Translations under genes and position numbers: made by a program
Part shown: one piece after another, positions 4,838 through 27,235 of the stretch
Layout: each line of letters starts with the position of its first letter
How positions within the stretch are numbered: position 1 is the stretch's first letter
The notes under the pieces: model-generated
The model's input: only the letters and a program-made list of their open reading frames with translations
What the model was told of the DNA's origin: nothing
The model's database searches: none
Origin: Candidatus Micrarchaeota archaeon
GTDB taxonomy: Archaea; B1Sed10-29; JAJRYS01
Assembly (NCBI GenBank): GCA_964643685.1
Contig: CAZXTN010000004.1
Span: 40,677 to 75,999, forward strand
Direction: 5' to 3'
Length of the DNA: 35,323 bases

Positions 4838-6649
4838 CTAAAACGTCTTCAAAAATAAGAAATCCTTAGATTTTGTAATTTTTTTGCTGTTCACTTCGTA
4901 GAATGCCCCTGCTTCATATAATGGCTGTAAGCTTGAGTATGCTTCTTCTTTTTCTTCTTCATTGCTTCCATTTAACACAAGTCCTGAGGATAAGTCCATG
5001 TTTATGCCAAGAGCTTTGTTTGCAGCTAAGAACCTTGTCAGGGTGTCAGAATCATGTGACTCACCTAGTTTTAAGTTCAAGCTGTCTTTTTTGTTCAGTT
5101 CTCTTAATTTTTTTCCGCAGAACCTGCTTATGCTTATTGCTTGTTTCAACTGCTCTTTTTTGAAGTCAGGGGAGTTGGAGAGTATGAGAACTGATTGAGG
5201 AAGGCCTGTTAAGAGGATATTGTTCTGCATGTTATCTATTTTCAAGTAACTGCTCTTTGAAAGGAATGAGTAAGTTTCTGTCTGCATTATGTCCTGCATC
5301 TGTGCTTTTTTTATTAAGATTACTTTTTCAGCTAAGTTTATCATTGATTCCAGTTGATTGTAGAAATCCCCTTCATTTTTCGATAGTTTTGCAATTTTAG
5401 GCAAGTTAATTGAAACTGATTGCATTACTCCCGAGGCTTCAATTTTGTTCTGAATAACGCTGTTATACACCAGGGACTTGTTCCCTGTATCTTGTTTAAT
5501 CAAGTAAGCTCCTCTTGGGATTTTCATTTTTGCATTTATCCTCTTGTATTTTATAGCTATGTTCGGCCATTTGAATCTTGTGTTAGCGTAATCTCCTTTT
5601 TCCATGACTTCAAGTAAGACTTTCATAAATTTCCCGGCTTCTTCTTCATAATCTTCATATGCTCCTTTGAATTCCCCTCCTACTGACACTGCTTTTGTTT
5701 TTTTCAAAAATTTAGGAATTTCTTCTTGTAAGTTTATTGTAAAAGAATTATCAGCGTAATACTTCCTGTTTATTTCATACAAGAAAGTCTGCGCAGTTTG
5801 CTTAACTTCCTTCAAGCTCTTGTTTTTCAAATAAGGAGCTATTAGTATGTTAAAGTGGTCAAAGCCAACTCCTTTTGAAGCATAGTCTCTTGAAGTTAAA
5901 AGAGCTCTTGCTGCATGCAAAACTGCTACTGTTGGTTTCCTGGCAGGGCCTGTTGTAATCACTCCATTTAATGAAAAACCATTTTTTAGAAAATGCATTA
6001 AGTTGTTTTGAATTGACTCAGGTTTTGTAATGAAGTCACTTAAGGAATGGATGTAAATGTCTGAATTCAAGTGAGCTTCTTTAATCTTCTTAGGCATTAC
6101 TTTGGTTAAAGTATACTCTTCCATTACCTTGTTTCCAAAAAGATAATTCATCAGAGAGGGGTTCCTTTCCCTTCTATTCTCAGTTATTTTTTTAATATCA
6201 TAGACAGGAAGCCCTATCCTAGAGTAATTCATTTTTGCATTGAACAGCTTTTTCTGCAAAAGAGTAGCATTCACAACTTCTCTTATAAGAGAAGATGAAA
6301 TGTCTTTCAGCTGAAACCTTCTTATATCCCTTTCAACATCACTTGCAATATCCTCTGCAACTGCTTTTGGTATCTTAGTTTCTCTTACAAGAGACTCAGC
6401 TATTTTTTTCTTATCAAAATGCTCTATCACATTTTTTGAAGTCCTTACCTTAATTGAGTGATAGTCTTTAAACTGATTCGCTTGCTCTTCATCAATCTCT
6501 TCTAAAACCTTTGTTATCTTTTTAACCAACTGCTTTTCATTCAATCCATCAAGCTCATTTTTCAGCTTAACAGCTGCTTCAGAAGCAGCCCAGAAACTAA
6601 CTCCAGCTTGCTTGCATTTTTTAATCACAATATTAGGCGAAACAGTCAT
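4838..6649 (-). CDS. ATP-cone / class III (NrdD-like) ribonucleotide reductase homolog, apparently catalytically inactive
   Basis: ATP cone (KVRTSKNVIEHFDKKKIAESLVRETK...LIREVVN) and archaeal NrdD-like blocks RIGLPVYD, AHLNSDIYIHSL, GPARKPTVAVLHAA, GVGFDHFNILIAPY and SINLPKIA. Only 2 Cys in 603 aa. No C-terminal CxxC/CxxC and no RxxGY. Confidence 0.8.
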   Translation of the reverse strand: MTVSPNIVIKKCKQAGVSFWAASEAAVKLKNELDGLNEKQLVKKITKVLEEIDEEQANQFKDYHSIKVRTSKNVIEHFDKKKIAESLVRETKIPKAVAEDIASDVERDIRRFQLKDISSSLIREVVNATLLQKKLFNAKMNYSRIGLPVYDIKKITENRRERNPSLMNYLFGNKVMEEYTLTKVMPKKIKEAHLNSDIYIHSLSDFITKPESIQNNLMHFLKNGFSLNGVITTGPARKPTVAVLHAARALLTSRDYASKGVGFDHFNILIAPYLKNKSLKEVKQTAQTFLYEINRKYYADNSFTINLQEEIPKFLKKTKAVSVGGEFKGAYEDYEEEAGKFMKVLLEVMEKGDYANTRFKWPNIAIKYKRINAKMKIPRGAYLIKQDTGNKSLVYNSVIQNKIEASGVMQSVSINLPKIAKLSKNEGDFYNQLESMINLAEKVILIKKAQMQDIMQTETYSFLSKSSYLKIDNMQNNILLTGLPQSVLILSNSPDFKKEQLKQAISISRFCGKKLRELNKKDSLNLKLGESHDSDTLTRFLAANKALGINMDLSSGLVLNGSNEEEKEEAYSSLQPLYEAGAFYEVNSKKITKSKDFLFLKTF

Positions 6650-6652
6650 GTT

Positions 6653-6679
6653 TTTTATTTAACCACAACTTAAATAAAA
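6653..6679. promoter_or_regulatory. Palindromic pair of TATA boxes serving the divergent nrdD-like and lrp genes
   Basis: TTTTATTTAA(6653-6662)-N7-TTAAATAAAA(6670-6679). Each TTATTTAA begins 28-30 nt from one of the two start codons in a 35-nt gap. Confidence 0.6.
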
Positions 6680-6684
6680 GAAGT

Positions 6685-7104
6685 ATGGAATTAAATGAAA
6701 CAGATCTTAAAATAATCTCATTTCTCAAGAAAGACTCACGAATCTCTTACACTGACTTGGGAAAAAAACTTGACTTGTCAGACGTAGCAGTTAAAAAAAG
6801 AATAGACAAGCTAGTGTCACAGGGAGTCATTAAAAACTTTTCAATAAACATTGACAACGAAAAAATAGGCAAGAAAATAAATGCAGTTCTTCTTGTAAAC
6901 TGCGTGCCTGAAGACATAAGCAAAGTAATTCAAAAATTTGAAAAAATACAACAAGTTGAAAAAATAAACAAAGCAATCGGAGAATATGACTTAATCATAG
7001 AACTCTTATGTAAGGACATTAATGAACTGAAAGAGATAGTTGAAGAAAAATTCACTTCACTTAAAGGAGTAAACTCAATAAACACTCTAATCAAAACAAG
7101 CTAA
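6685..7104 (+). CDS. Lrp/AsnC family transcriptional regulator
   Basis: N-terminal HTH (TDLKIISFLKKDSRISYTDLGKKLDLSDVAVKKRIDKLVSQGVI) and RAM domain with GEYDL. Confidence 0.95.
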   Translation: MELNETDLKIISFLKKDSRISYTDLGKKLDLSDVAVKKRIDKLVSQGVIKNFSINIDNEKIGKKINAVLLVNCVPEDISKVIQKFEKIQQVEKINKAIGEYDLIIELLCKDINELKEIVEEKFTSLKGVNSINTLIKTS

Positions 7105-7240
7105 TTCCTCTCCTCTAATCTTTTCTTTTCAGATATATAATTAGTTTTATAAATGCATTATGGTTTCTTATTAAACAAAACTTGCAGTATAAAGCAGTTT
7201 TTTACAAGAATCTTAAAAAAGTTAAAGGTGATTACAAGAC

Positions 7241-9436
7241 ATGAAAAAAGCAATTTTAATCTTGATAATGCTTTCAATAAGCGTTTTCTCTTATTCAATA
7301 ACAACTTTCAATGACTCAACAACTTCAAAAACATTCAATTTTACTGAAGCAGGAAGCAATGCTTCAATGTGGATAACACTACCTAAAAACGCTTCAGTGC
7401 AGTATGCTTATTTTGACTTAGAAGCGCAGCCAGTTGCAAACTGGACTAACTCAACTTTCGGAAACCAATCAGAAACAATGTATGACATAATGATTTACAA
7501 CACTTCACTTGCTTATTCTGTTGGAAACCCTCCTGGAACAGGAGGAAGTGGAAGCTCTAACCCTTCCACTTTTTTCAAATGGAACGGCTCAGCATGGGCT
7601 TTTGTACAGAACTTTGATGCGACAAGAATGATGTTATACAACTTGACTTATGGATTTGCAGTAGATTACCTTGATTCTCCTAACTTAATCTCCTTCTTCA
7701 ATGGCACAGCATGGAGTGACAATAAAACCCTTGATTCCTCAATAACCCTTTATGGCGTGGATATAGACCCTTTTAATTCAAGCCATGCTTTTGCAGTAGG
7801 AGCTAACAACATAGGACAAGCTAAAATTTTTGAATTCAATGGCACTGATTGGAATGAAGACACCATCCCCTCTGTTTCCACAACCCTCTACAGCGTAGCT
7901 TTCTCAACAACCAATCCTTCAGAATTGGCAATTGCAGTGGGAAGTGGAGGGCACATACTTGAATGGAATACAACAAATTGGACAGAAGCAACTTCTCCAA
8001 CAACTCAACATTTGTTAGATGTTTCAACAAACAGTGATTATGCCTATGCAGTAGGGGATGATGGCACAATAATAAAAAGGTCAGGGGATACAGATACATG
8101 GAGTAGCATAACAAGTCCTGTATCTGGAGTCGCTTTATATAGCATTGATTTTTATTATGAAAAACCCTCTGTTTCAAGAGATGGAGCAATAGCAGTAGGA
8201 GAACAAGGAACAATAATTGAAACAAAATCAACAAATAATCAAATATGGGAAAACGTTTCCTCACCAACCACAAAAACATTGTGGACAGTTGATCATTATT
8301 CAGACACTCTCTCATTTGCAGTTGGAGACAACATGACATTCATAAGATACTACGGTTATCCAAACTGGGTTTCACTTGGCTTCGAAGATGAAAAAAACTG
8401 GAACAATTCAAAGGCAGAATTAAGAACAGCAACAGCCAACTTAACACAAACCATCCAAGACGTTTTTACAACAGACACCAACCTTCAATTAAACCTCTCA
8501 ACAGGAACACCTGCTTACATAACCCTCTCAAACATAAACATAAGCTACGGTACTCAGTTGACTGGCGTGGCTTCAGGGTTATCTTTTAAGTTGAGTGATG
8601 GTACTGATGTGTCAACTACGCCTGTTTATGAGAATTCGAATGTTTCTGTTTATAATGGTTCGACGTTGGTTGCTGTTATTCCTATTGATTTTTCTGTTCA
8701 GCCTAATTATAGTGGTTGGGTTGCTGAGGCTGGTGTTAATGATAGTGATGACAGGGCTTATGTTTTGACTAGTCCTTTGAGTGATGCTAACAACTCTCAA
8801 GCTAGTTCGAAGACTCTCTATCTAAAATATAGCAATACTACTGCAACTAAGGTGTGTGTGGCTGATTCTTCAACTGTTACTGCTGCTGATTTGAAGGCAA
8901 TTGTGACTGAAAGTGATTGTACTGGAGCTGGTTATTCTTTGGTTTCTGCTAATACTACTGAGGTTGGAGGTGTGACTTATTTTGCTTTGACTGGTTTGAG
9001 TAATTCTGGTGCTGTGCAGGTTGTGAATTCTTCTGCTGGGTCTAATCCCCCTATTTTGACTGATGCGAGTGTCTCTCCTTCGTCTGGTAATTCTGACACT
9101 TCTTTTAATTTTAGTGTTACTGTTACTGATTTGGATAATGATTCTCAGAGTGTTTCAGTGTCTATTGACGGCGTGGTTTATACCATGAGTGAAGTTGACT
9201 CAAGCGATACGACGACGAGTGATGGGAAGGCTTATTATTATGTTACTCAGTTGTCTCAGGGGACTCATACTTATTATTTCAGTTCAAATGATGGTTCTAA
9301 TACTGCTTATACTACTTCTTATTCTTTGACTGTTGGTGCTGGTACTCCTATTATTGTTTCTGCTCCTGGTTTTAATTACCTTGCTGTTTTAGTTTTGTTC
9401 CTAGCGGTTTCACTCATCTACTACAAACTAAACTAA
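7241..9436 (+). CDS. Large secreted surface glycoprotein with beta-propeller repeats, an Ig-like domain and a PGF-CTERM-like anchor
   Basis: Signal peptide. Repeated AVGxxG.I...W....SP blades (Ycf48/BNR-like). About 30 N-x-S/T sequons. C-terminal APGF followed by a TM helix. RBS AAAGGTGA upstream. Confidence 0.85.
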   Translation: MKKAILILIMLSISVFSYSITTFNDSTTSKTFNFTEAGSNASMWITLPKNASVQYAYFDLEAQPVANWTNSTFGNQSETMYDIMIYNTSLAYSVGNPPGTGGSGSSNPSTFFKWNGSAWAFVQNFDATRMMLYNLTYGFAVDYLDSPNLISFFNGTAWSDNKTLDSSITLYGVDIDPFNSSHAFAVGANNIGQAKIFEFNGTDWNEDTIPSVSTTLYSVAFSTTNPSELAIAVGSGGHILEWNTTNWTEATSPTTQHLLDVSTNSDYAYAVGDDGTIIKRSGDTDTWSSITSPVSGVALYSIDFYYEKPSVSRDGAIAVGEQGTIIETKSTNNQIWENVSSPTTKTLWTVDHYSDTLSFAVGDNMTFIRYYGYPNWVSLGFEDEKNWNNSKAELRTATANLTQTIQDVFTTDTNLQLNLSTGTPAYITLSNINISYGTQLTGVASGLSFKLSDGTDVSTTPVYENSNVSVYNGSTLVAVIPIDFSVQPNYSGWVAEAGVNDSDDRAYVLTSPLSDANNSQASSKTLYLKYSNTTATKVCVADSSTVTAADLKAIVTESDCTGAGYSLVSANTTEVGGVTYFALTGLSNSGAVQVVNSSAGSNPPILTDASVSPSSGNSDTSFNFSVTVTDLDNDSQSVSVSIDGVVYTMSEVDSSDTTTSDGKAYYYVTQLSQGTHTYYFSSNDGSNTAYTTSYSLTVGAGTPIIVSAPGFNYLAVLVLFLAVSLIYYKLN

Positions 9437-9468
9437 TAAATACGCTTTAAGCCTTAATAATTAACTAT

Positions 9469-10245
9469 ATGGGAAAAAAAATCATCCTAACACTGCTATT
9501 GCTCGTATCAATTTCAATGGCAGAAGTAACCATCTTACACCCAATAGAAAAAACCTTCAATGACAGCCTATACCTTGGAAAAATTTCACCAGGCCAAGAA
9601 CTCAAACTAGTTTTCAGCAGAGAAACAGGGCCAAACGGAAACAAAAAAACGATATTTTGGGAAAAAGCAGTAATCCCACAACAATTTCTAATCAATGAAA
9701 CAATAGAAGGAAACCAAATAACAACATGGATTAAAATACCGGAACAACATCCAACAGGAATGCTTTCCTTTAACGTGACTCTTCAAAACAACATTTTATA
9801 CATCATGCCCGAACAAAGACAGATAACAATGAACGTTTCAAAAAACTTATATTCCTTCTCCTACCCTGACTCATTCTCTTCAAAAGCAGGAGAAAAAATT
9901 GAAATTCCAGTTGAAATAATAAGTGAATCAATTGCAGAAGAAAAAATAAGAATAACAGATTCAATAAACTTCCCTCTAAAATGGACACACATGCCTGAAA
10001 TAAAATTCAATGGAAAAGGCAAGAAAACAGCAATGCTAACAGTAAACCCAAGCGAAGAAGGAGATTACAACATTGCACTTAAACTTGAAACAAGCACAGG
10101 AGAAGAAGCAGGAATAATCAAAATACACCTAAGAACAACCCCCACAATCTCTTCAAAACTAAAAGCATTTGAAGAAGGCTTCTCAGTCACGCCAATAATC
10201 ATGCAACCCTTTTACTCCTTTTTATCACTCCTCAGTTACCTTTAA
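9469..10245 (+). CDS. Secreted hypothetical protein with predicted beta-sandwich (Ig-like) domains
   Basis: Signal peptide MGKKIILTLLLLVSISMA and beta-rich segments (LTVNPSEEGDYNIAL). The family was not recognised. Confidence 0.7.
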   Translation: MGKKIILTLLLLVSISMAEVTILHPIEKTFNDSLYLGKISPGQELKLVFSRETGPNGNKKTIFWEKAVIPQQFLINETIEGNQITTWIKIPEQHPTGMLSFNVTLQNNILYIMPEQRQITMNVSKNLYSFSYPDSFSSKAGEKIEIPVEIISESIAEEKIRITDSINFPLKWTHMPEIKFNGKGKKTAMLTVNPSEEGDYNIALKLETSTGEEAGIIKIHLRTTPTISSKLKAFEEGFSVTPIIMQPFYSFLSLLSYL

Positions 10246-10309
10246 ATTCAATTTTTTTCAATCAGGACATTCAAAAACAATGAAAATAAGCAAAAAAAGG
10301 TAATTTAAA

Positions 10310-11635
10310 ATGTACTCTGAAAAAATAAAAAAAGCACTGCAGGGAATAAGCATAGGAAATGAAATAAAAATTTCATTAAAAAGCAAGAGCTATGAAGGCA
10401 AGCTCATGCCTTCAACAGAACTCAACAACCCAAACATGATAATCCTGAAATTGAAAAATGGATACAATATAGGAATAAAATACTCTGATGAAATGAAGAT
10501 ACAAAAACTAAATTCAACCAAGCAGCAGGAAAAACAAAAAATTCACTCTAAAACAAAAAATAAAACAAGCTCACTTAAGCCAAAAGTTTCAATAATAACA
10601 ACAGGAGGGACAATCACTTCAAAAATAGACTATGAAACAGGAGGAGTCACTTCACTAATCACTCCAGAGGAATTAATCTCATCAGTTCCTGAATTAAATG
10701 ACACCATAGAAATAACAGACATAATACAACCTTTCAACAGAATGAGCGAAAGCATGTCATTCAAGGACTACATAGAACTGGCAAAAACAATTGAAAAAGA
10801 ACTTCAAAAAACAGATGCAGTTATCATAACCCACGGCACAGACACAATGCATTACACAGCAGCAGCACTCTCCTTCATGTTCCATGAAACAAGAAAACCA
10901 ATCATTTTAACAGGGGCACAGAGAAGCGCAGACAGGCCTTCATCAGATGCCTTCCTCAACTTGATATTCTCAGCAAAAATAGCAGCTTCAGACATAGGAG
11001 AAGTTGGAATCTGCATGCACTCAAGCTCATCAGACGACAAAGGAATATTCATAAGAGGAACGAAAGCAAGGAAAATGCACACAAGCAAAAGAAACGCATT
11101 CCGTCCCATAAACGATTACCCAATAGCAGAAGTAACTCAAGAAGGCGTAAAGCCACTTCAAGAATATAAAAAATCAGACAAGAAATCAAAGCCAAAAGCA
11201 TTAATAGGAATGGAAGAAAAAGTTGCCTTAATCAAAGCGCATCCAAACTCAGACCCTGAAATAATTGACTTTTACATGGAAAAAGGGTATAATGGGTTGA
11301 TAATAGAAGCAACAGGACTCGGGCAAATCCCCCTCGAAACAAAAGAGCAAAGCAAAAACTGGATGCCTTATGTGAAAAAAGCAATTGAAAAAGGAATGAT
11401 AATCTGCTTCGCGCCTCAAACAATATACGGAAGACTCAACCCCTATGTTTATTCCCAAGCAAGGGAATACAAGCAAGCAGGAGTAATCTTCTTAGAAGAC
11501 ATGCTTCCAGAAACAGCTTTAATCAAGTTATCCTGGCTGCTTGGCACGAACCAAAAAAATGTTAAAGAAAAAATGCTTGAAAACTATGCAGGGGAAATAA
11601 CAGAAAAAACAAAAACAGGAACTTTCTTGTACTAA
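10310..11635 (+). CDS. gatD: Glu-tRNA(Gln) amidotransferase subunit D
   Basis: N-terminal KLKNGYNIG domain and asparaginase motifs TGGTI, HGTDT, GAQRSADRPSSDA and RKMHTSKRNAF. Confidence 0.96.
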   Translation: MYSEKIKKALQGISIGNEIKISLKSKSYEGKLMPSTELNNPNMIILKLKNGYNIGIKYSDEMKIQKLNSTKQQEKQKIHSKTKNKTSSLKPKVSIITTGGTITSKIDYETGGVTSLITPEELISSVPELNDTIEITDIIQPFNRMSESMSFKDYIELAKTIEKELQKTDAVIITHGTDTMHYTAAALSFMFHETRKPIILTGAQRSADRPSSDAFLNLIFSAKIAASDIGEVGICMHSSSSDDKGIFIRGTKARKMHTSKRNAFRPINDYPIAEVTQEGVKPLQEYKKSDKKSKPKALIGMEEKVALIKAHPNSDPEIIDFYMEKGYNGLIIEATGLGQIPLETKEQSKNWMPYVKKAIEKGMIICFAPQTIYGRLNPYVYSQAREYKQAGVIFLEDMLPETALIKLSWLLGTNQKNVKEKMLENYAGEITEKTKTGTFLY

Positions 11636-17584: not shown

Positions 17585-19279
17585 ATGAGATTCTTAAGCG
17601 TGCACTCTGACTTCCTTGAATTCGAGCCGAAAAAAAAGGCATTCAAAGGAGCAGAGGAAGTAACAGAGAAAGAAAAAAAGAGAGTAGAAGAATGTCTTGT
17701 TGTTTTCACAAGCGTTGAAAAAGGAGACGACGAGTCAATAATTCCAAAATACTTAGACGAAATTGAAAAAATAGCAAGCCAAGTAAATACCAAAAAAATA
17801 ATCCTTTATCCATGGGTTCACTTGTCTTCAAACCCAAGCAAGCCAGAGGCAGCTCTTGAAATTCTTAAAAAAGCAGAAGAAGAATTGAAGAAAAAAGCAT
17901 ACGAAGTAACAAGAGCTCCATTTGGATGGTACAAGGCATTCACTGTTTCATGCAAAGGACATCCTTTATCTGAACTAAGCAGGCAAATTTCAACTGAAAA
18001 AAAACAAGAAGCAGTTGAGTCATACGACCCTGAAAAGCTTTTGAAAACAATTTCAAAAGCAACTCTCAGCAAGGAAAAACTCAAGCCAAACGATCATAGG
18101 ATAATTGGGCAGAACCTTGACTTGTTCAGCTTCTACAACGTAGCTCCTGGAATGGTATTCTGGCACCCGAAAGGGCTTGTAATAAGAAACAAGTTAATTG
18201 AATTTTGGAGAAAAAAGCATGTTGAAGCAGGATACCAGGAAATACTCACCCCCCAAGTAATGAGCGACATTCTATGGAAAACCTCTGGACACTGGGAGCA
18301 TTACAAGGATAACATTTTCACTACAAAATATGAGGATAGAAACTTTGCAGTGAAGCCAATGAATTGTCCGGGAGGAATACTTGTCTATAAAAGCAGAAGC
18401 AGAAGCTACAAAGAGCTTCCACTTAGGATGTCTGAACTGGGGGTAGTTCATAGGGTTGAATTGTCAGGTGTTTTATCCGGATTATTCAGGGTAATCCAAT
18501 TCACTCAAGACGACGCTCACATTTACTGCACTGAAGAGCAGTTGCAAGATGAAATACGAAAAGTGATTAATTTAGTTGAAGAAATTTATGCAGTATTCGG
18601 CTTTGACTACACAATGGAATTGTCAACAAAGCCTAAAAAAGCAATGGGTAGCGACGAGATTTGGGACAAGGCAGAAAACGCTTTGAAAAGAGCTCTTGAA
18701 AAAACAGGCAAGCAATATAAGATAAATGAAGGAGACGGCGCTTTTTACGGGCCGAAAATCGACTTTCATATCAAGGATTCTCTTGGACGAGAATGGCAGT
18801 TAGCTACTATTCAGCTTGACTTCCAAATGCCACAAAGATTCAAGCTAGAGTACATTGGAAAAGATGGCGAAAAGCATGTTCCAATAATGCTTCACAGGAC
18901 AATACTTGGTTCTCTTGAAAGGTTCATTGGAATCTTGCTAGAGCACACTAATGGCAACTTGCCTTTCTGGCTTGCGCCTGTTCAAGTGAAAGTGATTTCA
19001 TTCAACGAGTCAAACAAGGAATCAGTTGAAAGGTTCACTAAGCAAATGCTTGCAGAAGGCTACAGAGCTGAAACTGACACTGAGCCAGGCACAGTGCAAT
19101 CGAGAATAAGGGAAGCTGAGCTTCAGAAAGTGCCTTACATTGTAGTGATTGGAAGCAAGGAAGAAGAAAAAGGAACAATTGCAGTAAGAGAACATGGCAG
19201 TAAAAAAATAAGGTATGATGTTAAGCCAAGTGATTTTTTCAAGGAACTTGCTGAGAAAAACAACCCAGCAAAACAATGA
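17585..19279 (+). CDS. thrS: Threonine--tRNA ligase (archaeal editing domain fused to a bacterial-type catalytic core)
   Basis: N-terminal LYPWVHLSS...RAPFGWYKAF..CKGHPLSELSR, then DHRIIG, KPMNCPG, FTQDDAH, GAFYGPKID, HRTILGSLERF and an anticodon-binding domain. Confidence 0.95.
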   Translation: MRFLSVHSDFLEFEPKKKAFKGAEEVTEKEKKRVEECLVVFTSVEKGDDESIIPKYLDEIEKIASQVNTKKIILYPWVHLSSNPSKPEAALEILKKAEEELKKKAYEVTRAPFGWYKAFTVSCKGHPLSELSRQISTEKKQEAVESYDPEKLLKTISKATLSKEKLKPNDHRIIGQNLDLFSFYNVAPGMVFWHPKGLVIRNKLIEFWRKKHVEAGYQEILTPQVMSDILWKTSGHWEHYKDNIFTTKYEDRNFAVKPMNCPGGILVYKSRSRSYKELPLRMSELGVVHRVELSGVLSGLFRVIQFTQDDAHIYCTEEQLQDEIRKVINLVEEIYAVFGFDYTMELSTKPKKAMGSDEIWDKAENALKRALEKTGKQYKINEGDGAFYGPKIDFHIKDSLGREWQLATIQLDFQMPQRFKLEYIGKDGEKHVPIMLHRTILGSLERFIGILLEHTNGNLPFWLAPVQVKVISFNESNKESVERFTKQMLAEGYRAETDTEPGTVQSRIREAELQKVPYIVVIGSKEEEKGTIAVREHGSKKIRYDVKPSDFFKELAEKNNPAKQ

Positions 19280-19317
19280 GAAACTTATTTAAACTAATCT
19301 TGCTTTTTCTTTTTTTA

Positions 19318-20904
19318 ATGAGTTACTTAGATGAATTGATTGAAAGCTCTAAGAAAAAAAAAGAGGGGTTAATTGACAAAATACAGGAGAAATACTCTGA
19401 ACAAGAAAGCAAAAAAGAAGAATTTTTAAGAAAAAGAGAAGCAGGAGAACTTGAAATCAAAGGAAAAAAAGAGCTTGTCACTTCTTATGGCGAAGTTAAA
19501 GTTTACAAAGTCAAAGGAGAACAGTTATTGTATTACTCTGTTCCTGTTATCAAAGCAAAAGGCCCTGAAAAAATAATAATAAACACTATAAAAGAAGCAG
19601 CAACAAGGCTTATTACAATTTCACCTGAAGAAATACGTGAACCAGTTAAGAGAAGAAACTTTTACTTCAAGAAAGTAAAGGAGATAATTGAAAAAAGCCC
19701 TGAACTCGGGGTCCCTAAGTCAAAAATCAATTTTTACGCTGACATGGTTGTCAGGGAAATGATAGGATACGGCATATTAGACATACTGACTCAAGATGAC
19801 AAGCTTGAAGAAATAATGGTAATAGGGCCTAATAAGCCTGTTTACGTCTTTCACAGGCAGTATGATATGATGAAAACCAACATCATGTTCGGCAATGACG
19901 AAGAAATAAGAAACGTGATTGACAAAATAGCAAGGCAAGTAAGCAGGAGGGTAGACACTCAGTCTCCTTTGCTTGATGCTCGTTTGCCTGACGGTTCAAG
20001 AGTCAACGCAACTATAAAGCCAATTTCACTTGGAGGAAGCACTATCACAATACGTAAATTCAGAACAGATCCTTTTTCTGTTGTTGACTTGGTTTCGAAA
20101 GGGACAATTGACTCTGAAACAGCTGCATTCTTGTGGCTTGCTGTTGATGGTTTAGGAGCAAAACCAGCTAACATTCTAGTGTCAGGTGGAACTGGAAGCG
20201 GAAAAACAACAACACTCAACGTGCTTGCTTCATTTATTCCCGAAAGAGAAAGGATAATTACAATTGAGGATACAGCTGAACTTAACTTGCCTATTGAACA
20301 TTGGATAAGGTTTGAAACCCGTCCACCTGGCTTGGAAGGCACAGGAGAAGTTACAATGGACATTCTTGTAAAAAATTCTCTTAGAATGCGTCCTGACAGG
20401 ATTGTTGTAGGTGAAATCAGGCACGCTGAAGCCTTTACTTTGTTCACTGCAATGAACACTGGACATGACGGTTCTCTTGGAACAGTTCACGCTAACTCAG
20501 CAAAAGAAACAGTAGTAAGGCTCCTTAACCCTCCTATGAACGTGCCTCCTTTAATGGTTGATGCTTTGAATTTAATTGTAGTGCAGGCAAGAATTCATGA
20601 TAGAAGAAAAGGCACAATCAGGAGAGTAACGGAAATAGCGGAAGTCACTGGAGTGGTTGACGACAAGCCAGAAGTGCAGTTGTTGTTTGAATGGGATCCT
20701 GTTGTGGACAAGCTGAAACCAACAGGCGTTCCTTCAAAATATGAAAATCTTCTTTTAAGATACACTGGCTTGTCAAAATCAGATTTTAATGAAGAGATTA
20801 AGAAAAGGAAGAAGCTTATTGAAGAACTTGTTTCAAAAAACATAAGGGAAATGCCTAAAGTTGTTGAAGCATTTAAAAAATACAGGGCTGAGAATAATGG
20901 GTAA
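19318..20904 (+). CDS. Type IV/Tad pilus assembly ATPase (CpaF/TadA family)
   Basis: GGTGSGKTT, TIEDTAEL, RMRPDRIVVGEIR and MNTGHDGSLGTVHANS. Start moved from 19276 to ATG 19318 because TTATTTAA at 19285-19292 is at TATA distance from it. Confidence 0.93.
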   Translation: MSYLDELIESSKKKKEGLIDKIQEKYSEQESKKEEFLRKREAGELEIKGKKELVTSYGEVKVYKVKGEQLLYYSVPVIKAKGPEKIIINTIKEAATRLITISPEEIREPVKRRNFYFKKVKEIIEKSPELGVPKSKINFYADMVVREMIGYGILDILTQDDKLEEIMVIGPNKPVYVFHRQYDMMKTNIMFGNDEEIRNVIDKIARQVSRRVDTQSPLLDARLPDGSRVNATIKPISLGGSTITIRKFRTDPFSVVDLVSKGTIDSETAAFLWLAVDGLGAKPANILVSGGTGSGKTTTLNVLASFIPERERIITIEDTAELNLPIEHWIRFETRPPGLEGTGEVTMDILVKNSLRMRPDRIVVGEIRHAEAFTLFTAMNTGHDGSLGTVHANSAKETVVRLLNPPMNVPPLMVDALNLIVVQARIHDRRKGTIRRVTEIAEVTGVVDDKPEVQLLFEWDPVVDKLKPTGVPSKYENLLLRYTGLSKSDFNEEIKKRKKLIEELVSKNIREMPKVVEAFKKYRAENNG

Positions 20905-22066
20905 TTTTAACAAGCTTAAAAACATGCTGAAAAAGCAGGAGAAAAAATCAACCAAAGCTTCTGCTGGTTCTGAACAGAAAAAAATTCTTGAAGAATCAGT
21001 GCAGGAGGATTATGACAGGGAAACAATTTCAAAAATAGTCAACAGGATGAAGCAAAAGTACATTCAAGAAGGAGTTCTTAAAGAAGAGGACGAGACAGAC
21101 TCTGAATTAAGAAAAATTATCTCAGGACATAAAGAACTTCAATTAAAAGGAGGTTCTGTCTCTGAACTTCAATTATATGACAATGCCTTTGTAAGAATGT
21201 TTGGAAAATTCTACCTTCTCCTGCAGTCTCCTCTTTCTAAAATAAGCGACTTATTCTATGAAAAAATGGGCAAGAAACTTGAAGATGACTTGCTTGCATC
21301 AGGCATGCCTTACTCGGTCGAGCAATACTTGTCTTTATCCTTATCTGCCACTGTTTTTTTGTCAGCAATTTCCCTGTTCCTACTTATCATCTTTGCTTTA
21401 GCTGGAAAAATAAGCCTGCTGACAGTTGTTTTAACAGGAATTTTTGTACCTGTTTTTATCTTAGCAATTGCTTTTTTAATCCCTAACAGCAAAGCCAAAA
21501 AAATAGCCCAGCAGATAGACAAAGAACTTCCATTTGCATTGAGGCACATGAGCATTGAAATAAGAGCAGGAGTTGGAATTTACAAGACAATGGAGTCAAT
21601 TGCTTCCTCTGGTTACGGTCCTTTAAGCGACGGCTTCAGATGGGTGCTTCATCAAGTTGAAAAAGGAGTGCCAACAGAAGAGGCTCTTGCAGCATGGGCT
21701 AACAGGACAAAATCAGAGTCATTAAGCAGAGTAACTTCACACATCATAAGAGCACTTAGAACAGGAGGCAACTTATCTGAAATAATGGTTACAATAGCAG
21801 AAGATGTTTCATTTGAAAGAAAAATGAAAATAGCTGACTTCGCTGAAAAACTAAACCTCCTTGCATTATTCTTAATGTTTGCAACAGTCATCGGGCCAGT
21901 TATGCTAACTATCCTCACTACAATTGCTTCAAGCCCAACAATAAGCCAGTACTTAGGCATGTTTTCATTTTTCACAATTGAATTCCTAATGCTGACTTAC
22001 TTCCTGCTTGTTCCAGCAGCAGTGGGCTTGTTCCTTTACTTTATTAAAAGCTCTGATCCAGGGTAA
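20897..22066 (+). CDS. Type II secretion system F / TadB-TadC-like pilus platform protein
   Basis: IDKELPFALRHMSIEIRAG, YGPLS, ALRTGGNLSEIM and several TMs. ATG 20897 overlaps the ATPase stop. Confidence 0.9.
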   Translation: MGNFNKLKNMLKKQEKKSTKASAGSEQKKILEESVQEDYDRETISKIVNRMKQKYIQEGVLKEEDETDSELRKIISGHKELQLKGGSVSELQLYDNAFVRMFGKFYLLLQSPLSKISDLFYEKMGKKLEDDLLASGMPYSVEQYLSLSLSATVFLSAISLFLLIIFALAGKISLLTVVLTGIFVPVFILAIAFLIPNSKAKKIAQQIDKELPFALRHMSIEIRAGVGIYKTMESIASSGYGPLSDGFRWVLHQVEKGVPTEEALAAWANRTKSESLSRVTSHIIRALRTGGNLSEIMVTIAEDVSFERKMKIADFAEKLNLLALFLMFATVIGPVMLTILTTIASSPTISQYLGMFSFFTIEFLMLTYFLLVPAAVGLFLYFIKSSDPG

Positions 22067-22084
22067 AAAAAGGTTTGATTTAAA

Positions 22085-22969
22085 ATGAGTAAAAGTTTGT
22101 ATCAAAAATACGCGGATGCAGTTGAATTTTCAGGAATGAAAATAAAACCTCAATTCCTGTTAGTTTTAACTTTAATAGGCGTGTTTGCTTCAATCCTAAT
22201 CTCTTTCTTCATCCCCTTCATTGATTTTACAGTGTCAATACTTGCAATTCTTTTAATAATTGACATCGGCTTAGGGCTGCCTTTTTACTTGAAAGACAAA
22301 AAAATAGCTGAAATAGAATCAAAACTGCCAGACGTTCTCCGCCACATTGCAATCACAATCAAGACAGGAGGAACAATTGAAACAGCTTTAAAAGAAGCAT
22401 CAAGAGTAGACTACGGACCAATCACACCAGGATTGAAAAAAATGCTACTGCAGATAAACGAAGGCAAAACATTTGAAGAAGCATTCACAAACTTCGCATT
22501 AGAATCACACTCCAACTTGCTTGAAAAAGCGGCAATAATAATAGTAGCAGCTAGAAAAGCAGGAGGAGGGCTTCTTGAAACCCTTACTTCAATGGCAGAG
22601 GATTTCAGAGCATTATACAGGCTGCAGAGAGAAAGGCAAAGCAAAACATTCCTTCAATTCCTATTCATACTCGTTGCAGGCGTTTTCATAGCTCCATTTG
22701 TATTTGGAATCGTCAAGTCAGTTCTTCAAATACTCGTGCAAGTAGGAGGAGAACCAACAGCATCAACAGATGCTCTTGTATCGAAATTCAACACTTTGTT
22801 CAAAGTTTACTTAATCCTGCAAGCAGCTTTGTCTTCAATCGGAGCTTTCCAAGTAAGAGAAGGAAAAATATCCAAAGCAATTACATTCATTCCAATAGCA
22901 GCAATAATTTCTTATGCCATTTACATTGTTGTTTCAACTCAATTCATAGCTCTTCTAAGCGCAGGTTAA
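22085..22969 (+). CDS. Second T2SSF / TadC-like pilus platform protein
   Basis: IESKLPDVLRHIA...GGTIE.AL...DYGPI, KAGGGLLETL and TM helices. Confidence 0.9.
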   Translation: MSKSLYQKYADAVEFSGMKIKPQFLLVLTLIGVFASILISFFIPFIDFTVSILAILLIIDIGLGLPFYLKDKKIAEIESKLPDVLRHIAITIKTGGTIETALKEASRVDYGPITPGLKKMLLQINEGKTFEEAFTNFALESHSNLLEKAAIIIVAARKAGGGLLETLTSMAEDFRALYRLQRERQSKTFLQFLFILVAGVFIAPFVFGIVKSVLQILVQVGGEPTASTDALVSKFNTLFKVYLILQAALSSIGAFQVREGKISKAITFIPIAAIISYAIYIVVSTQFIALLSAG

Positions 22970-23077
22970 AGGTTTTTAAATCAAAAAAGATTAGTTTAAA
23001 CTTAAATTAAAAACAACAATCAACAAAAGTTGATTATAATTAAAAAAAATGAAAAGTAAATTTCGGAGGTACGTACC

Positions 23078-23416
23078 ATGAGAAAAGAAAAAGGACAAGG
23101 TTCCCTGGAATACTTGATTATTATAGCAGCAGTGCTAGCAATCGCAGCTATAGTAGTGTTATTCCTAACAGGAGCCTTTAAACAAACAGGAAAAGATGTT
23201 GCAGCATGTAAACAAGCAGCAGGAAGCTGTGCATCAAGCTTAGTAGGAGCACCAGATGGAACACAATGTGGAGAGACAGTATGTGCTGACTGTATTGGAA
23301 TAAATGCAACTGTTTCAACAGCAGGAACATGTGCGACAGCATGTAATGGCTCTGAATGTGATAATGTAACAGAAGCATGTAGATATGGAGCACCACAATG
23401 TATTATTACAGGATAA
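23078..23416 (+). CDS. Probable major pilin (class III signal peptide, Cys-rich)
   Basis: KG|QGSLEYLIIIAAVLAIAAIVV, RBS GGAGG, its own downstream terminator, and 10 Cys in the ~70-aa C-terminal domain. Confidence 0.85.
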   Translation: MRKEKGQGSLEYLIIIAAVLAIAAIVVLFLTGAFKQTGKDVAACKQAAGSCASSLVGAPDGTQCGETVCADCIGINATVSTAGTCATACNGSECDNVTEACRYGAPQCIITG

Positions 23417-23425
23417 AACCAACTC

Positions 23426-23452
23426 AACAGCTTCAGAACGAAGCTGTTTTTT
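23426..23452 (+). terminator. Intrinsic-type terminator after the pilin gene
   Basis: AACAGCTTC-AGAAC-GAAGCTGTT stem followed by T runs. Confidence 0.7.
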
Positions 23453-23513
23453 AATTCTTTTTTTTCAAAAAGCAATTTGCTTTAAATAATTCTATTTCTT
23501 TAAAACAAAAACA

Positions 23514-24497
23514 ATGATTGACTTTCAAAACATTTACTTCGCAACAGCCCTAGCAGGTTTTCTCGCAGCTTCATACACAGACATAAAAACACATGAAATA
23601 AATCCAATCATACCAAAACTGTTAATAGCACTCGGCTTAATCCTACATTCAACAGAAGCATACTTAACACAATCCCTCTCCCCCCTTACCCTGTCTGTTG
23701 GGACAATGATGCTCGCTTTCGCATTCTCCTACTTCCTTTACTTAATAGGGGGCTGGGCAGGAGGAGACGTAAAAATATTCACTGCGCTTGGAGCAATACT
23801 TCCAGCATACGGCAAATTCAACTTCTTCCCATTCTACGCTTTAGCAGCTTCTTTACTTGCAATCTTCCCCTTCATTCTTTTATACGTCTCTTATCACCTG
23901 CTTTTTGTAAAGGGCATTTACAAGAAATCAAAAAAAATAATCATAAAAGCAATCAAGCAAAGCATAGCAACCCCTTTCATCCTCCTTGCAGGGTATGTTA
24001 TTGCCTCTTCCATAGGCTACCCACTCCTCTCATTTCTAACAATCCCCTTGCTTTACTTCCTTAAAAAACCAGGATTAATTCTGTCACTAGCACTGACAAT
24101 TTACTCCTTCAATGCAAACTTCTACTCTTCCTTAATTCAATTCTCATTATTCTTCTGGATGTCTTTTTTGACAATTGTTTTCTTCTCTTTCTTTGAAATA
24201 GCTAAAAAGCACATATTAAGGGAAACAAAAAAAATAAGCGAGTTGAAAGAAGGAGACATTCTTGCAAAAAACTTAGTGAAGCAAAAAAACAGGCACGTGT
24301 TTAAAGAAAATTCAATTTTCAAAAATCAAGAAAACGTAGTAATATTTGCAGGCGCTTCTGGGCTTGAAAAAAAAGACATTGCTTTTTTGAAAAAATTAGG
24401 GTTTAAAAAAATTGAATTGAAAAAATCAATTCCCTTTGTTCCAATTTTTACACTCGGCTTAATTATTTTATGGCTTATCCAAACTCTTTTATACTAA
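23514..24497 (+). CDS. Prepilin peptidase, A24 family (EppA-like, extra TMs)
   Basis: Catalytic Asp motifs SYTDIK and GGWAGGDVK, many TMs, and C-terminal ELKEGDIL...IPFVPIF. Confidence 0.9.
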   Translation: MIDFQNIYFATALAGFLAASYTDIKTHEINPIIPKLLIALGLILHSTEAYLTQSLSPLTLSVGTMMLAFAFSYFLYLIGGWAGGDVKIFTALGAILPAYGKFNFFPFYALAASLLAIFPFILLYVSYHLLFVKGIYKKSKKIIIKAIKQSIATPFILLAGYVIASSIGYPLLSFLTIPLLYFLKKPGLILSLALTIYSFNANFYSSLIQFSLFFWMSFLTIVFFSFFEIAKKHILRETKKISELKEGDILAKNLVKQKNRHVFKENSIFKNQENVVIFAGASGLEKKDIAFLKKLGFKKIELKKSIPFVPIFTLGLIILWLIQTLLY

Positions 24498-24516
24498 TTT
24501 TCAGTAATTAATTTCA

Positions 24517-24690
24517 ATGAAAAAAATAGGCAACAGGGCGCAAGTAAGCGTGGAGTATCTCATCTTATTAGCATTAGGCGCAGTTGTTTCAGTTGTAATA
24601 ACAATGCTTGCTTTCAACATAATGGGAATGAAAGATAACATCAAGCAGCTGATAATTGAGTACAGGAAAAGCGCACTTGGCTTGAAGTGA
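24517..24690 (+). CDS. Small pilin, 57 aa (class III signal peptide), not in the ORF track
   Basis: Hand translation MKKIGNRA|QVSVEYLILLALGAVVSVVITMLAFNIMGMKDNIKQLIIEYRKSALGLK. Confidence 0.85.
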   Translation: MKKIGNRAQVSVEYLILLALGAVVSVVITMLAFNIMGMKDNIKQLIIEYRKSALGLK

Positions 24691-24697
24691 TTCTAAA

Positions 24698-24877
24698 ATG
24701 AAAAATTTGAAATTAAATAACAAAGCACAGGTGTCCATGGAGTACCTAATCATCCTAGCAATCTTATCTGTATTGACAGTAGTTGCAACTGCTCTTGCTT
24801 TCAACGTCATGAAAATGAAAGATTCAACAAAACTTAAAAACGAGCTGTACAAAAAAGCTTTGCTTAAAATGAATTAA
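24698..24877 (+). CDS. Small pilin, 59 aa (class III signal peptide), not in the ORF track
   Basis: Hand translation MKNLKLNNKA|QVSMEYLIILAILSVLTVVATALAFNVMKMKDSTKLKNELYKKALLKMN. Confidence 0.85.
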   Translation: MKNLKLNNKAQVSMEYLIILAILSVLTVVATALAFNVMKMKDSTKLKNELYKKALLKMN

Positions 24878-24897
24878 AAGGAAGTGAAACTTGAAAA

Positions 24898-25326
24898 ATG
24901 CTGGAAAAAAAAGAAAAAGCGCAAATTACAATAGAATACCTCATCATCCTCTCAGTGATGATTCTATTGTTTTCAGCTGTTTCAATGGATTTGATTTCAT
25001 CTTCTTTGACAAACACAATGCAAATTCAAACAAGCGAGTTGATAAGACAAGCAAACTCTTCCTTTCAGCACGCCATCACAGAACTTTCAACCCAGGCAAG
25101 CGGTTCATCTGAAACAATAAAACTAAGAAGCTCAGCTGACTGCGATTTTATTGTCATGCCTTCTTACTTGCTTGTAAACTGCTCGCCTTCATCAGCTTCT
25201 TTTAATGAATTCAACAATACTAAAATAGCAGAAGCACCGTCAGGAATTTCATACAACTGCTTGACTTGCACAGGGGGAGTCGTTACAAATGAAGAAAGGC
25301 AAATCATTCAAATTTCAAAGCAGTGA
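24898..25326 (+). CDS. Minor pilin (class III signal peptide)
   Basis: KA|QITIEYLIILSVMILLF. Confidence 0.85.
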   Translation: MLEKKEKAQITIEYLIILSVMILLFSAVSMDLISSSLTNTMQIQTSELIRQANSSFQHAITELSTQASGSSETIKLRSSADCDFIVMPSYLLVNCSPSSASFNEFNNTKIAEAPSGISYNCLTCTGGVVTNEERQIIQISKQ

Positions 25327-25681
25327 AAAAGCGCAAGTTTCATTTGAAATGATTCTTGTCCTTGCAGTTGTCACCCTTCTTGTTTCAGCAATTTTCATAG
25401 ACTTTTCAACACAAGCAAACGACACCTTCATACTTTCAAATTTAAAATCAATAGCAGAAAACAATCTGAATAAAATAAGCATTCAGAACAACTTAAACTG
25501 CTATTTAAAATCCATGTCTTTAAATGGGAAACAAGTGACTCTTGACATAGAAGGAGGTTCGCAGTGCCTTCTTTCAGCAGAGTCCCTGGCAAATGAAATG
25601 GAACTAAGATACTGCAAAGTGCCTGCAAACAATGACGAAATAATCAACTGCGGGGAAGAGTATTCATTAAAAATTATTTAA
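25289..25681 (+). CDS. Minor pilin (class III signal peptide)
   Basis: KA|QVSFEMILVLAVVTLLV. GGAG lies upstream of ATG 25289, which overlaps the previous gene by 38 nt. Confidence 0.8.
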   Translation: MKKGKSFKFQSSEKAQVSFEMILVLAVVTLLVSAIFIDFSTQANDTFILSNLKSIAENNLNKISIQNNLNCYLKSMSLNGKQVTLDIEGGSQCLLSAESLANEMELRYCKVPANNDEIINCGEEYSLKII

Positions 25682-25705
25682 ATTAAAATCAAAGAGGCTG
25701 TTAAA

Positions 25706-26104
25706 ATGAAAAAAGGAGTCACGACTTTGGATGCAATAACTGCTTTCCTCATATTGCTATTCATAGCTATTTTTATTCAAAAAACAGCAACTGTCTCGCT
25801 TTCAAATTCAGATGACTACGGTTTGCTTGTTCAATCAAAACTCTCCTCTTCTCACATGAGCTCCATCATCAATACTTTTTACTCAACAAATCCAGGGGAA
25901 AACGACAAAGTAAAACTAGCAAGTGATGAATTCTCAGCAATTTTTTTTGGAGACGAAACAGCATCATTAGAAATAACCAAGTTCCCTGAAAGCAATGAAA
26001 CAAGAACAATAACCTCTGCTGTTGGAAAAACATTTTCATCTTCATCGCCAGCTGTCAAAGGAATAACCTTGAACCAGCAGGACAAGGAGGTAAGAAAAAA
26101 TTGA
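25706..26104 (+). CDS. Minor pilin-like protein
   Basis: KKG|VTTLDAITAFLILLFIAIF. Confidence 0.75.
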   Translation: MKKGVTTLDAITAFLILLFIAIFIQKTATVSLSNSDDYGLLVQSKLSSSHMSSIINTFYSTNPGENDKVKLASDEFSAIFFGDETASLEITKFPESNETRTITSAVGKTFSSSSPAVKGITLNQQDKEVRKN

Positions 26105-26553
26105 AACAATTACTGAAAAATAAAATGGAAAAAAAAGCATGCGGAAAATCAAAAGGCCAAATTTTTACTTTAGATGCTTTCCTATCTTTCCTTCTTGTCA
26201 CAGTAGCTGTCGGCCTTATTGCAACGCAAACAAGCCAAATTTTAAACATGCCTTCAAATGAAATCCAGCAGTTATCAAGCGACTTCGCGCAAATAGCAGT
26301 TAAAAGAACCCTTGCAGTAAACGAGCCGAACAATCTGTCCTCTTCAAAAATGCCTGAGCTTGGAAATTTAATGAACAGCATTTTCCAAGGCACTGCTTAT
26401 GAATACGAAGCAGAATTATACAACAGCACAGACACTCTGGTAATTAAAAAAAATCAAGGATGCTCTTCATTCAAAAAGGTGGCTGTGACTCAAAAACCAG
26501 CAATTGTAGACAATCAAGAAGGCTATTTTAAAATGAAAATATGCAAGGAGTAA
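26101..26553 (+). CDS. Minor pilin-like protein
   Basis: KG|QIFTLDAFLSFLLVTVAVGLI. TTG start preceded by AAGGAGG; alternative ATG at 26125. Confidence 0.78.
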   Translation: MKQLLKNKMEKKACGKSKGQIFTLDAFLSFLLVTVAVGLIATQTSQILNMPSNEIQQLSSDFAQIAVKRTLAVNEPNNLSSSKMPELGNLMNSIFQGTAYEYEAELYNSTDTLVIKKNQGCSSFKKVAVTQKPAIVDNQEGYFKMKICKE

Positions 26554-26559
26554 TGAAAA

Positions 26560-26883
26560 ATGAGCAAAGGATTTTTCATGACAATGGATGCGGCAATAGG
26601 CCTGCTTGTAGTAATCTTAATAATCTCGACAGCAGTGACGTTGACAGAGTCGTCAGTGCAACATGACTTGAAAGAACTATCCAGGCAGGCAAGAGATGCA
26701 TATGATTACAATTACCTAGGAGGATTAAACAGCTTGCCTTACATTAATAACTGCCAGAACTCAGAAGTCAAAGCAGTTGTAAACTCTTTCAGATACAATT
26801 TCACAACCCATTCAATTCAAAAAGTCACTACAACAGCGTGCTTGAAAACAAGCTCACGAAAGCAAGGAGATGCTTATGAATAA
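26560..26883 (+). CDS. Minor pilin-like protein
   Basis: SKG|FFMTMDAAIGLLVVILII. Confidence 0.75.
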   Translation: MSKGFFMTMDAAIGLLVVILIISTAVTLTESSVQHDLKELSRQARDAYDYNYLGGLNSLPYINNCQNSEVKAVVNSFRYNFTTHSIQKVTTTACLKTSSRKQGDAYE

Positions 26884-27235
26884 AAAACAAAAAAATTCAA
26901 AAGGTTTTATCTTGACAGGAATCCTATTCGGACTTGCGTTAATCCTCCTCATTTACTCAAATTACCTTGCTTTTACATCAGTTAAATGGGATGACAGCAC
27001 AGTGCTTCAAATAGACGCAGTCAACAATAGAAAAACAGATGTCAGAAGGATAATAAAAGACGCAATATCAGACGGGCATTGCAGTGACTTAGAAGACATT
27101 CTTAACAACCCTCTTCTTGACTCAGATGGAGTTGAAGTTACAATAAATAACATTGACTTAACCAACTGCCCTTCTCCTTCAATCAATGTTTCAATTTCAT
27201 CTGAAAAAGTATATGAAGAATACACCTTCCCTTGA
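26876..27235 (+). CDS. Minor pilin-like protein lacking the acidic +5 residue
   Basis: SKG|FILTGILFGLALILLI. Start placed at ATG 26876, spaced from AAGGAG. Confidence 0.7.
   Translation: MNKKQKNSKGFILTGILFGLALILLIYSNYLAFTSVKWDDSTVLQIDAVNNRKTDVRRIIKDAISDGHCSDLEDILNNPLLDSDGVEVTINNIDLTNCPSPSINVSISSEKVYEEYTFP

Follow-up and report, generated by a model that had tools for sequence, protein, structure and literature searches.

A codon-skew island in a surface-protein gene

We analysed a stretch of 35,323 nucleotides (nt), hereafter the window, from Candidatus Micrarchaeota archaeon (assembly GCA_964643685.1, contig CAZXTN010000004.1, positions 40,677 to 75,999). Within it we examined a surface-protein gene at window positions 7241..9436 (+ strand), an open reading frame (ORF) of 731 amino acids (aa). 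The gene corresponds to positions 47917-50112 of contig C4 in the source genome (G000), a 695-kb bin of 12 contigs that is 92% complete, and its C-terminal part forms an island in which codons end overwhelmingly in G or T. From the N to the C terminus the protein comprises a hydrophobic signal-like segment, a beta-propeller head, a stalk, a beta-rich domain, an Ig-like domain and a PGF-like anchor, all encoded on the + strand. The head (7241..8269, residues 1-343), of which residues 227-297 match the Pfam family PF23366 (HVO_0234-like beta-propeller, E 6.5e-7), has an intermediate fraction of G/T-ending codons (0.43). The stalk (8270..8548, residues 344-436) has strongly A/C-ending silent sites, with a G/T fraction of 0.25 and 3/20 G/T-ending codons in each of three overlapping 20-codon windows starting at 8411, 8441 and 8471. 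The motif N-I-S-Y/G-T (8537..8554, residues 433-438) forms the 5' junction with the skew island (8549..9409), which covers 861 bp or 287 codons (437-723) and has a G/T-ending fraction of 0.878. Within the island, an AlphaFold model places the beta-rich domain at 8588..9025 (residues ~450-595); the Ig-like domain, a widespread repeat unit of giant surface proteins, lies at 9053..9334 (residues ~605-698). The P-G-F motif (9365..9373) of a C-terminal sorting-signal-like tail (IIVSAPGFNY) is followed by an anchor helix predicted from the model at 9377..9430 (residues 713-730), and the last 8 codons, which with the stop codon occupy 9410..9436, are all A/C-ending (8/8). The AlphaFold model, obtained for residues 340-731 with a 7-row alignment, has a mean predicted local distance difference test score of 57, with residues 340-448, which take in the 5' edge of the island, below 50 and hence not reliable. 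The gene is flanked upstream by an Lrp/AsnC regulator gene (6685..7104, + strand) and downstream by the p258 gene (9469..10245, + strand), which encodes a 258-aa conserved secreted/membrane protein, and both flanks are syntenic in relatives.

The preliminary description of this DNA had counted 8 of the 50 codons before 8549 and 46 of the 50 after it as ending in G or T, and our recount gave exactly these values. It had also placed the switch directly after ...NISY with the frame intact, which is confirmed, as the frame continues past ...NINISY. We delimited the island by a two-change-point likelihood scan over the codons of the gene. The maximum-likelihood solution was codons 437-723 (8549-9409), with the 5' edge supported over 8546-8582 and the 3' edge over 9389-9410 at two log-likelihood units, and with a gain of ~100 log-likelihood units over a single-rate model. 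The G/T-ending fraction is 0.39 across the 436 codons before the island, 0.878 across its 287 codons and 0/8 in the codons that remain. The 3' edge, at 9409/9410, lies inside the anchor helix, in agreement with the reversion first described near 9410, and the next gene is A/C-rich as had been stated (p258, G/T-ending fraction 0.23). Codon style flips between TAC (Y436) and GGT (G437), and across this edge the GC content is steady (~0.40) while GC skew and AT skew both change sign. Third positions in the island are composed of A.06, C.06, G.20 and T.68, and the keto-minus-amino skew falls from +0.76 at position 3 to +0.27 at position 1 and to -0.21 at position 2.

Next, we compared this step with other genes of the genome by fitting the same island model to 475 gene-like ORFs of at least 150 codons, with the redundant contig C8 excluded. 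The studied gene ranked first, with a log-likelihood gain (delta-lnL) of 99.2; the gene in second place reached 75.3, the 99th percentile was 30.8 and the median 5.3, and only 2/475 genes had a delta-lnL above 40. In its composition the island resembles the G/T-type genes of the same genome, both at position 1 (G.37, T.26, A.29, C.07 in the island; G.34, T.25, A.32, C.10 in the G/T-type genes) and at four-fold sites (T.73, G.16, A.07, C.04; class mean T.61, G.15, A.17, C.07). Among two-fold C/T codons the share of T is 0.87 in the island, with a class mean of 0.78 and a maximum over the other 474 genes of 0.98; among two-fold A/G codons the share of G is 0.83 (class mean 0.63, maximum 0.75), and at four-fold sites the share of T is 0.73 (class mean 0.61, maximum 0.72). 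The codon choices of the island are thus at or just past the extreme of the G/T-type genes of the genome. The first and second codon positions have kept their A and C, and the protein sequence is conserved, which points to a long evolution under purifying selection and not to one mutational burst. A single burst of hypermutation or deamination on imported single-stranded DNA is ruled out by this retention, and an inversion is ruled out by the intact frame over both edges.

The second-strongest intragenic shift (delta-lnL 75.3) occurs in C1:1363-3249, which encodes a PKD/Ig-type surface protein. In this gene a short G/T-type patch (~nt 2023-2200) is flanked by extreme A/C-type DNA (G/T fraction 0.09 over 335 codons), and the switch falls at a conserved D-A-D-N-D motif in an Ig-like domain homologous to that of the island.

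Strand-linked bias, junctions and copy number

We then examined the silent sites of the genome as a whole. The 701 ORFs were filtered on two properties, the purine content of codon position 1 and the content of Phe, Ser and Cys, and 618 were kept. The G/T-ending fractions of neighbouring genes are anticorrelated when the genes lie on opposite strands (r = -0.65, 166 pairs) and correlated when they lie on the same strand (r = +0.73, 354 pairs), the regional strand-dependence of silent sites that characterises replication-type strand asymmetry. The keto/amino content of silent sites is a regional property of the DNA strand in this genome, and since the bias is linked to the strand, the "locus of opposite skew" of the preliminary description amounts to a gene whose coding strand is the other one with respect to the regional bias. 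Among ORFs of at least 150 codons, the G/T-ending fraction is at most 0.30 in 118/475 and at least 0.68 in 29/474, the studied gene being left out of the latter count. The + strand of the window is G/T-rich at the left, where the Pfam-confirmed T2SSE ATPase gene (1407-2933) is of the G/T type (0.67), and A/C-rich from about the NrdD gene (4838-6649) onward. There are several polarity changes per contig and one Orc1/Cdc6 gene, at C1:188 kb.

Several further observations concern this bias. The NrdD gene itself contains a skew shift at codon 306, and in a relative (G001) the boundary of Lrp (0.32) and p258 (0.71) is exactly where polarity changes. Opposite strongly A-ending genes in C1:116000-160000 there are antisense ORFs as long as 350 codons with much Phe, Ser, Cys and Leu; a naive longest-ORF caller takes them as genes with a G/T-ending fraction of ~0.9, and the filter above removed them. 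Contig C8 (25.8 kb) duplicates C1:75876-101373 at 99.95% identity, a redundancy of the assembly or bin for which C8 was excluded from the statistics.

The stretch is present in seven listed public vent-metagenome runs, and we compared the contigs of four of them, a contig-level comparison in which rare variants may be hidden and the populations are possibly not independent. The deepest run (X1), which may be the source sample, yields a single unbranched contig of 15,122 nt over 6600-10400. Position 8549 is bridged by record 7 (7944-8647) of run X3 and record 22 (8404-8970) of run X5, and the 3' edge by record 9 (9336-10266) of X3 and record 23 (9242-9422) of X5, all with 0 differences; run X4 shows one C>T difference, at 9538. 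No joints, indels or alternative junctions are present in the contigs of the four runs, and there are no N runs in or beside the gene. The misassembly that had been named as a possible refutation is not what we find, as separately built contigs of X3 and X5 span both junctions; with 0 differences in these bridging contigs, an assembly chimera is very unlikely.

When the island was searched against the assembly by blastn and tblastn, no second copy was recovered, the only full-length match being the island itself. Apart from this there was a 50-nt/29-aa match to the end of C6:20601-23126 and a weak match of the Ig domain in C1:1363-3249. The genome contains just four pairs of repeats that reach 250 bp and 78% identity, and the island is in none of them; across 8300-9600 the similarities we found were short and at the codon level, and neither repeats nor insertion scars bracket the island. 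The island is single-copy in the assembly. The near-identical copies fused to other N-termini that the preliminary description had expected from a BLASTn search are thus absent from the 695-kb assembly, as are the alternative junctions it had expected in the population from the contigs of the four runs. A single copy without alternative junctions is the outcome it had itself named as speaking against a recent or active cassette. Its statement that the window holds no recombinase or reverse transcriptase is borne out by a Pfam scan of 30 window ORFs, which also revealed no integrase or transposase. A diversity-generating retroelement was considered and rejected, as there is no reverse transcriptase among these ORFs and no template repeat of the island.

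The tail that matches C6:20601-23126 combines a P-G-F motif, a hydrophobic helix (residues 713-730) and a basic residue, the protein ending in ...SAPGFNYLAVLVLFLAVSLIYYKLN. C6:20601-23126 is an 841-aa G/T-type surface protein with the same ten-residue IIVSAPGFNY and helix tail as the studied gene (80% nucleotide identity over 50 nt). The SAPGFNY tail is found only in these 2 of the 701 ORFs, and a third ORF, on C10, has only a looser P-G-x plus hydrophobic pattern. The curated PGF-CTERM model of NCBIfam gives no match at E <= 0.1, and the archaeosortase A model TIGR04125 gives one weak match in the genome (C2:53531-53722, 22.2 bits with a cut-off of 75).

A different sequence tract joins two other surface-protein genes of the genome. 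Positions C1:206-504 and C2:86295-86593 are 97.7% identical over 299 nt and lie in the paralogous genes C1:202-894 and C2:84050-86923, which are otherwise 60% identical in protein and share no further nucleotide match. The tract is of the G/T type in both genes and lies near contig ends. Judged by its sequence, it looks like a recent gene conversion, and it demonstrates that surface-protein genes of this genome are recombining.

Relatives and separate ancestry of the gene parts

Upon searching related genomes, we found matches to the protein in 9/41 of them, including 4/4 other genomes of the family. Most of these matches span only residues ~344-425 to 725, with three copies in one relative (G002) and two in another (G003). 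A word-indexed protein search returned 8 matches and an exhaustive HMMER search 1617 at E <= 0.001, most of the latter to the Ig-like repeat of giant proteins. The nearest protein found among 1.8-5.8 billion sequences is only 64-67% identical. The whole C-terminal module is present in 6 of the best 150 representative proteins, namely P0001, P0002, P0004, P0077, P0084 and P0088. The heads carried on this shared module are a YCF48/BNR-like propeller in the studied gene and P0004, an FG-GAP head in P0084 and in contig C33 of G002, and an unnamed head in P0001 and P0002. The proposal that the gene belongs to a family of surface proteins built by swapping heads onto a shared C-terminal module is thereby supported, relatives carrying the module on at least three head types. 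In the homologous modules of five related genes the G/T-ending fraction is flat (0.34-0.65), with no step.

Upon comparing the parts of the gene separately, we observed that their closest relatives differ. The studied gene and P0004 are 36% identical in the head, 40% in the stalk, 44% in the island and 25% in the last 20 residues, whereas the corresponding values for P0001 are 17%, 25%, 64% and 90%, and in pairwise alignment the similarity to P0001 jumps at YGTQLTGV. Trees of seven sequences, with long branches, agree with this pattern. The island tree groups the studied gene with P0001 (support 99/98) and the upstream tree groups it with P0004 and P0077 (support 98/98). In approximately unbiased (AU) tests on the same sequences the swapped groupings were rejected, both for the island (p = 0.004 for the studied gene with P0004, and p = 0.010) and for the upstream part (p = 0.0006 for the studied gene with P0001, and p = 0.010). 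Phylogenetic incongruence between adjacent segments, by which mosaic genes are recognised, is thus observed. Judged by these alignments and trees, the ancestry of the island differs from that of the head and stalk, and the gene is on this evidence a true mosaic. The skew edge lies within ~25 codons of the ancestry change. The 5' edge falls inside an N..YGT motif whose N, Y, G and T are invariant in 7/7 aligned family members, and the 3' edge falls just past IIVSAPGFNY, inside the anchor helix.

When the locus was compared across the family, all four other genomes had the order NrdD(-), Lrp(+), p258(+), and the gap of 150-350 nt from Lrp to p258 contains no surface gene (4/4). Either the G000 lineage therefore gained the whole gene here, or the other genomes lost it in a single event. 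The flanking genes of the window were found at none of the homologue loci L002-L014.

Possible origins of the island and wider context

We consider it more probable than not, though only somewhat above even chances, that the gene is a recombinant mosaic in which a P0004-like head and stalk were joined to a P0001-like C-terminal module from an opposite strand context. The P0004-like propeller head and stalk would have been joined in frame to a module that runs from the beta-rich domain through the Ig-like domain and the PGF-like motif into the anchor helix, of which it takes the first half. Over a long period the module's DNA would have belonged to a gene whose coding strand was the opposite one with respect to the regional skew, in the same lineage or in a close relative. 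Both crossovers would lie in the most conserved patches of the family, N..YGT at one end and SAPGFNY with the anchor helix at the other. The join would be old enough for no near-identical donor to be left in the assembly, and young enough for the silent sites not to have drifted to the local A/C-rich regime. The preliminary description had proposed the recent copying of a ~860-nt cassette into the gene from a locus whose skew is opposite. The mosaic and the silent-site signature of the other strand survive from that proposal, and "recent" does not, given the single copy and a nearest relative at 64-67% identity. If this explanation holds, the gene is a well-documented example of a known process and not of a new mechanism.

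Several results weigh against such a recombinant origin. No donor was found, and the DNA of the nearest relative, P0001, was absent from the genome and metagenome contig collections searched. Scanning metagenome contigs with the island protein gave, from 136 pattern matches, one distant locus (L013, 54% identity, residues 140-274), and a scan of genome contigs with P0001 recovered just L014, the P0002 gene, at 44% identity. Furthermore, the groups compared in the AU tests were chosen after the identity table was known. The last 20 residues (712-731) are P0001-like (18/20), yet the final 8 codons are A/C-ending, which would mean that the recipient already had this tail or that a shared sorting signal constrains it. 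The bias of the island is slightly beyond that of every whole gene in the genome on two measures (e.g. two-fold A/G codons), and the abutting extreme patches of both signs in C1:1363-3249 also fit a local recoding process. Additionally, opposite third-position biases would leave donor and recipient with little nucleotide identity even in the conserved motifs, so that homologous recombination between them would be inefficient.

The most relevant known system for a local process is that of the GRINS of bacteria. By the account of Nivina et al. (2021, PMC8256042), GRINS are defined as regions of >500 bp with mean absolute GC and TA skews >0.15 in 150-nt windows. They occur as duplicates that share >80% DNA identity with a second region of the cluster or genome, and gene conversion has been linked to them. 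Their skew peaks at third positions, shifts abruptly, often takes both signs on one strand and is of unknown cause. The Discussion of that paper leaves open for bacteria whether these skews form in place or move, and the word Archaea has 0 occurrences in it. The island is 861 bp long and has a mean absolute GC skew of 0.20 and TA skew of 0.29 (24 windows of 150 nt), both skews being positive, with a window-to-window correlation inside the island of only 0.02. No duplication was found in the assembly, where the best non-self match is 50 nt at 80% and no repeat pair includes the island, and for that reason the island is not to be classed as GRINS. The likeness lies in a coding stretch with an intense, same-sign excess of G over C and T over A that is most marked at third codon positions and changes abruptly beside the opposite sign, within a modular gene family with exchanged segments, and in this the island resembles the single-copy regions of intense skew that the paper describes. 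The island differs in that its host is an archaeon, that it lies in a surface protein instead of a polyketide synthase, and that the strand-linked regional skew of the genome offers an ordinary source for its bias. No report of strand skew or GRINS in DPANN archaea was found in the literature as far as its titles and abstracts go.

An alternative is accordingly that the silent sites of the island were recoded in place to G and T, and those of its neighbours to A and C, by a process of the GRINS type without any import of DNA, the incongruence of head and module being an older, unrelated shuffle at the same edge. We regard this as unlikely, if worth keeping in view. In its favour, the island exceeds the length and intensity thresholds of GRINS (861 bp; 0.20 and 0.29), single-copy regions of intense skew are reported in PMC8256042, and opposite skews abut, as the stalk directly before the island has a GC skew of -0.16 and a TA skew of -0.25 and the tail is 0/8 G/T-ending. 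A bias above every whole gene on two measures and a second surface gene with like abutting patches, C1:1363-3249, also fit it. However, recoding in place does not predict that skew edge and ancestry change coincide within ~25 codons, the skew of the genome is mostly regional and strand-linked with only 2/475 genes above a delta-lnL of 40, and no mechanism for it is known. A more far-reaching version is that DPANN archaea have a counterpart of GRINS, a process that recodes stretches of surface genes to near-pure G/T or A/C endings, so that skew-marked modules of low complexity are the units of exchange and the island is a single-copy stage and not a passive import; this we hold to be a speculative possibility of low probability.

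The remaining explanations fare worse. Active swapping of cassettes with near-identical donors, akin to antigenic variation, by which the island would have been copied recently from elsewhere in this genome, would suit a family that carries shared modules on different heads and has several copies per relative genome (G002 3, G003 2), the recent 299-nt conversion tract between two other surface genes, and an assembly of which 8% is missing. Nevertheless, blastn and tblastn found only the island itself, the 29-aa anchor match and one weak Ig-domain match, the island is in none of the four repeat pairs, and one unbranched X1 contig of 15,122 nt crosses the gene with no alternative junctions in the contigs of four runs. 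This explanation is largely refuted, and we consider it highly improbable. Selection on codon choice within the gene, be it for slow codons during folding or secretion of the C-terminal domains or through a constraint at the RNA level, would account for a switch that keeps the frame and has its start in a conserved motif. Yet the modules of the five related genes have no step, the bias is the strand-linked mutational signature of the genome and not a special codon set, and the ancestry change is left unexplained, so that we give this explanation hardly any credence. A chimera of two strains or species could be suspected in a metagenome bin with redundancy such as that of C8 and C1:75876-101373 (99.95%), but both edges are crossed without a difference by separate contigs of X3 and X5, X1 holds the whole stretch in one piece and no N run lies in or beside the gene, which leaves it with an extremely small probability.

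Returning to the recombinant mosaic, other known systems share some of its features. Like mosaic genes formed by intragenic recombination or by partial gene transfer (PMC3241670), the studied gene has segments of different ancestry and a compositional discontinuity at the breakpoint; it differs in being marked by a reversal of strand bias, not by GC content or polymorphism, and in that no donor allele was found. Borrelia has strand-specific codon usage with strong replication skew. In the present genome, likewise, the strands differ in silent endings, G/T against A/C, but the genome is archaeal, has many polarity changes per contig and shows a reversal inside one gene. For bacteria with strong replication skew, strand-specific codon usage is also described in work on Lawsonia (PMC2671203) and Chlamydia (PMC2089121). 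An exchangeable segment in a surface protein recalls further systems, namely the cassette-based surface variation of pilE/pilS and vlsE; unlike these, the assembly holds no silent donor cassettes, and the contigs of four runs display no population heterogeneity.

The strand-linked bias of silent sites is strong enough in this genome to act as a natural label, such that DNA whose strand context or owner has changed is visible to within a few codons. The skew label offers a direct, alignment-free means of following how modules are exchanged among surface proteins that evolve fast, in DPANN archaea that are uncultured, depend on hosts and are thought to make contact with them through the cell surface. 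The island also provides a clean archaeal case for asking whether GRINS-like skews arise in place or are only moved.

Elsewhere in the window, a type IV pilus-like locus at 19276-27235 contains a T2SSE ATPase, two T2SSF membrane proteins and a prepilin peptidase (A24), the T2SSE ATPase at 1407-2933 being the second of its kind in the window. Five small ORFs of this locus have no Pfam match and are candidate pilins.

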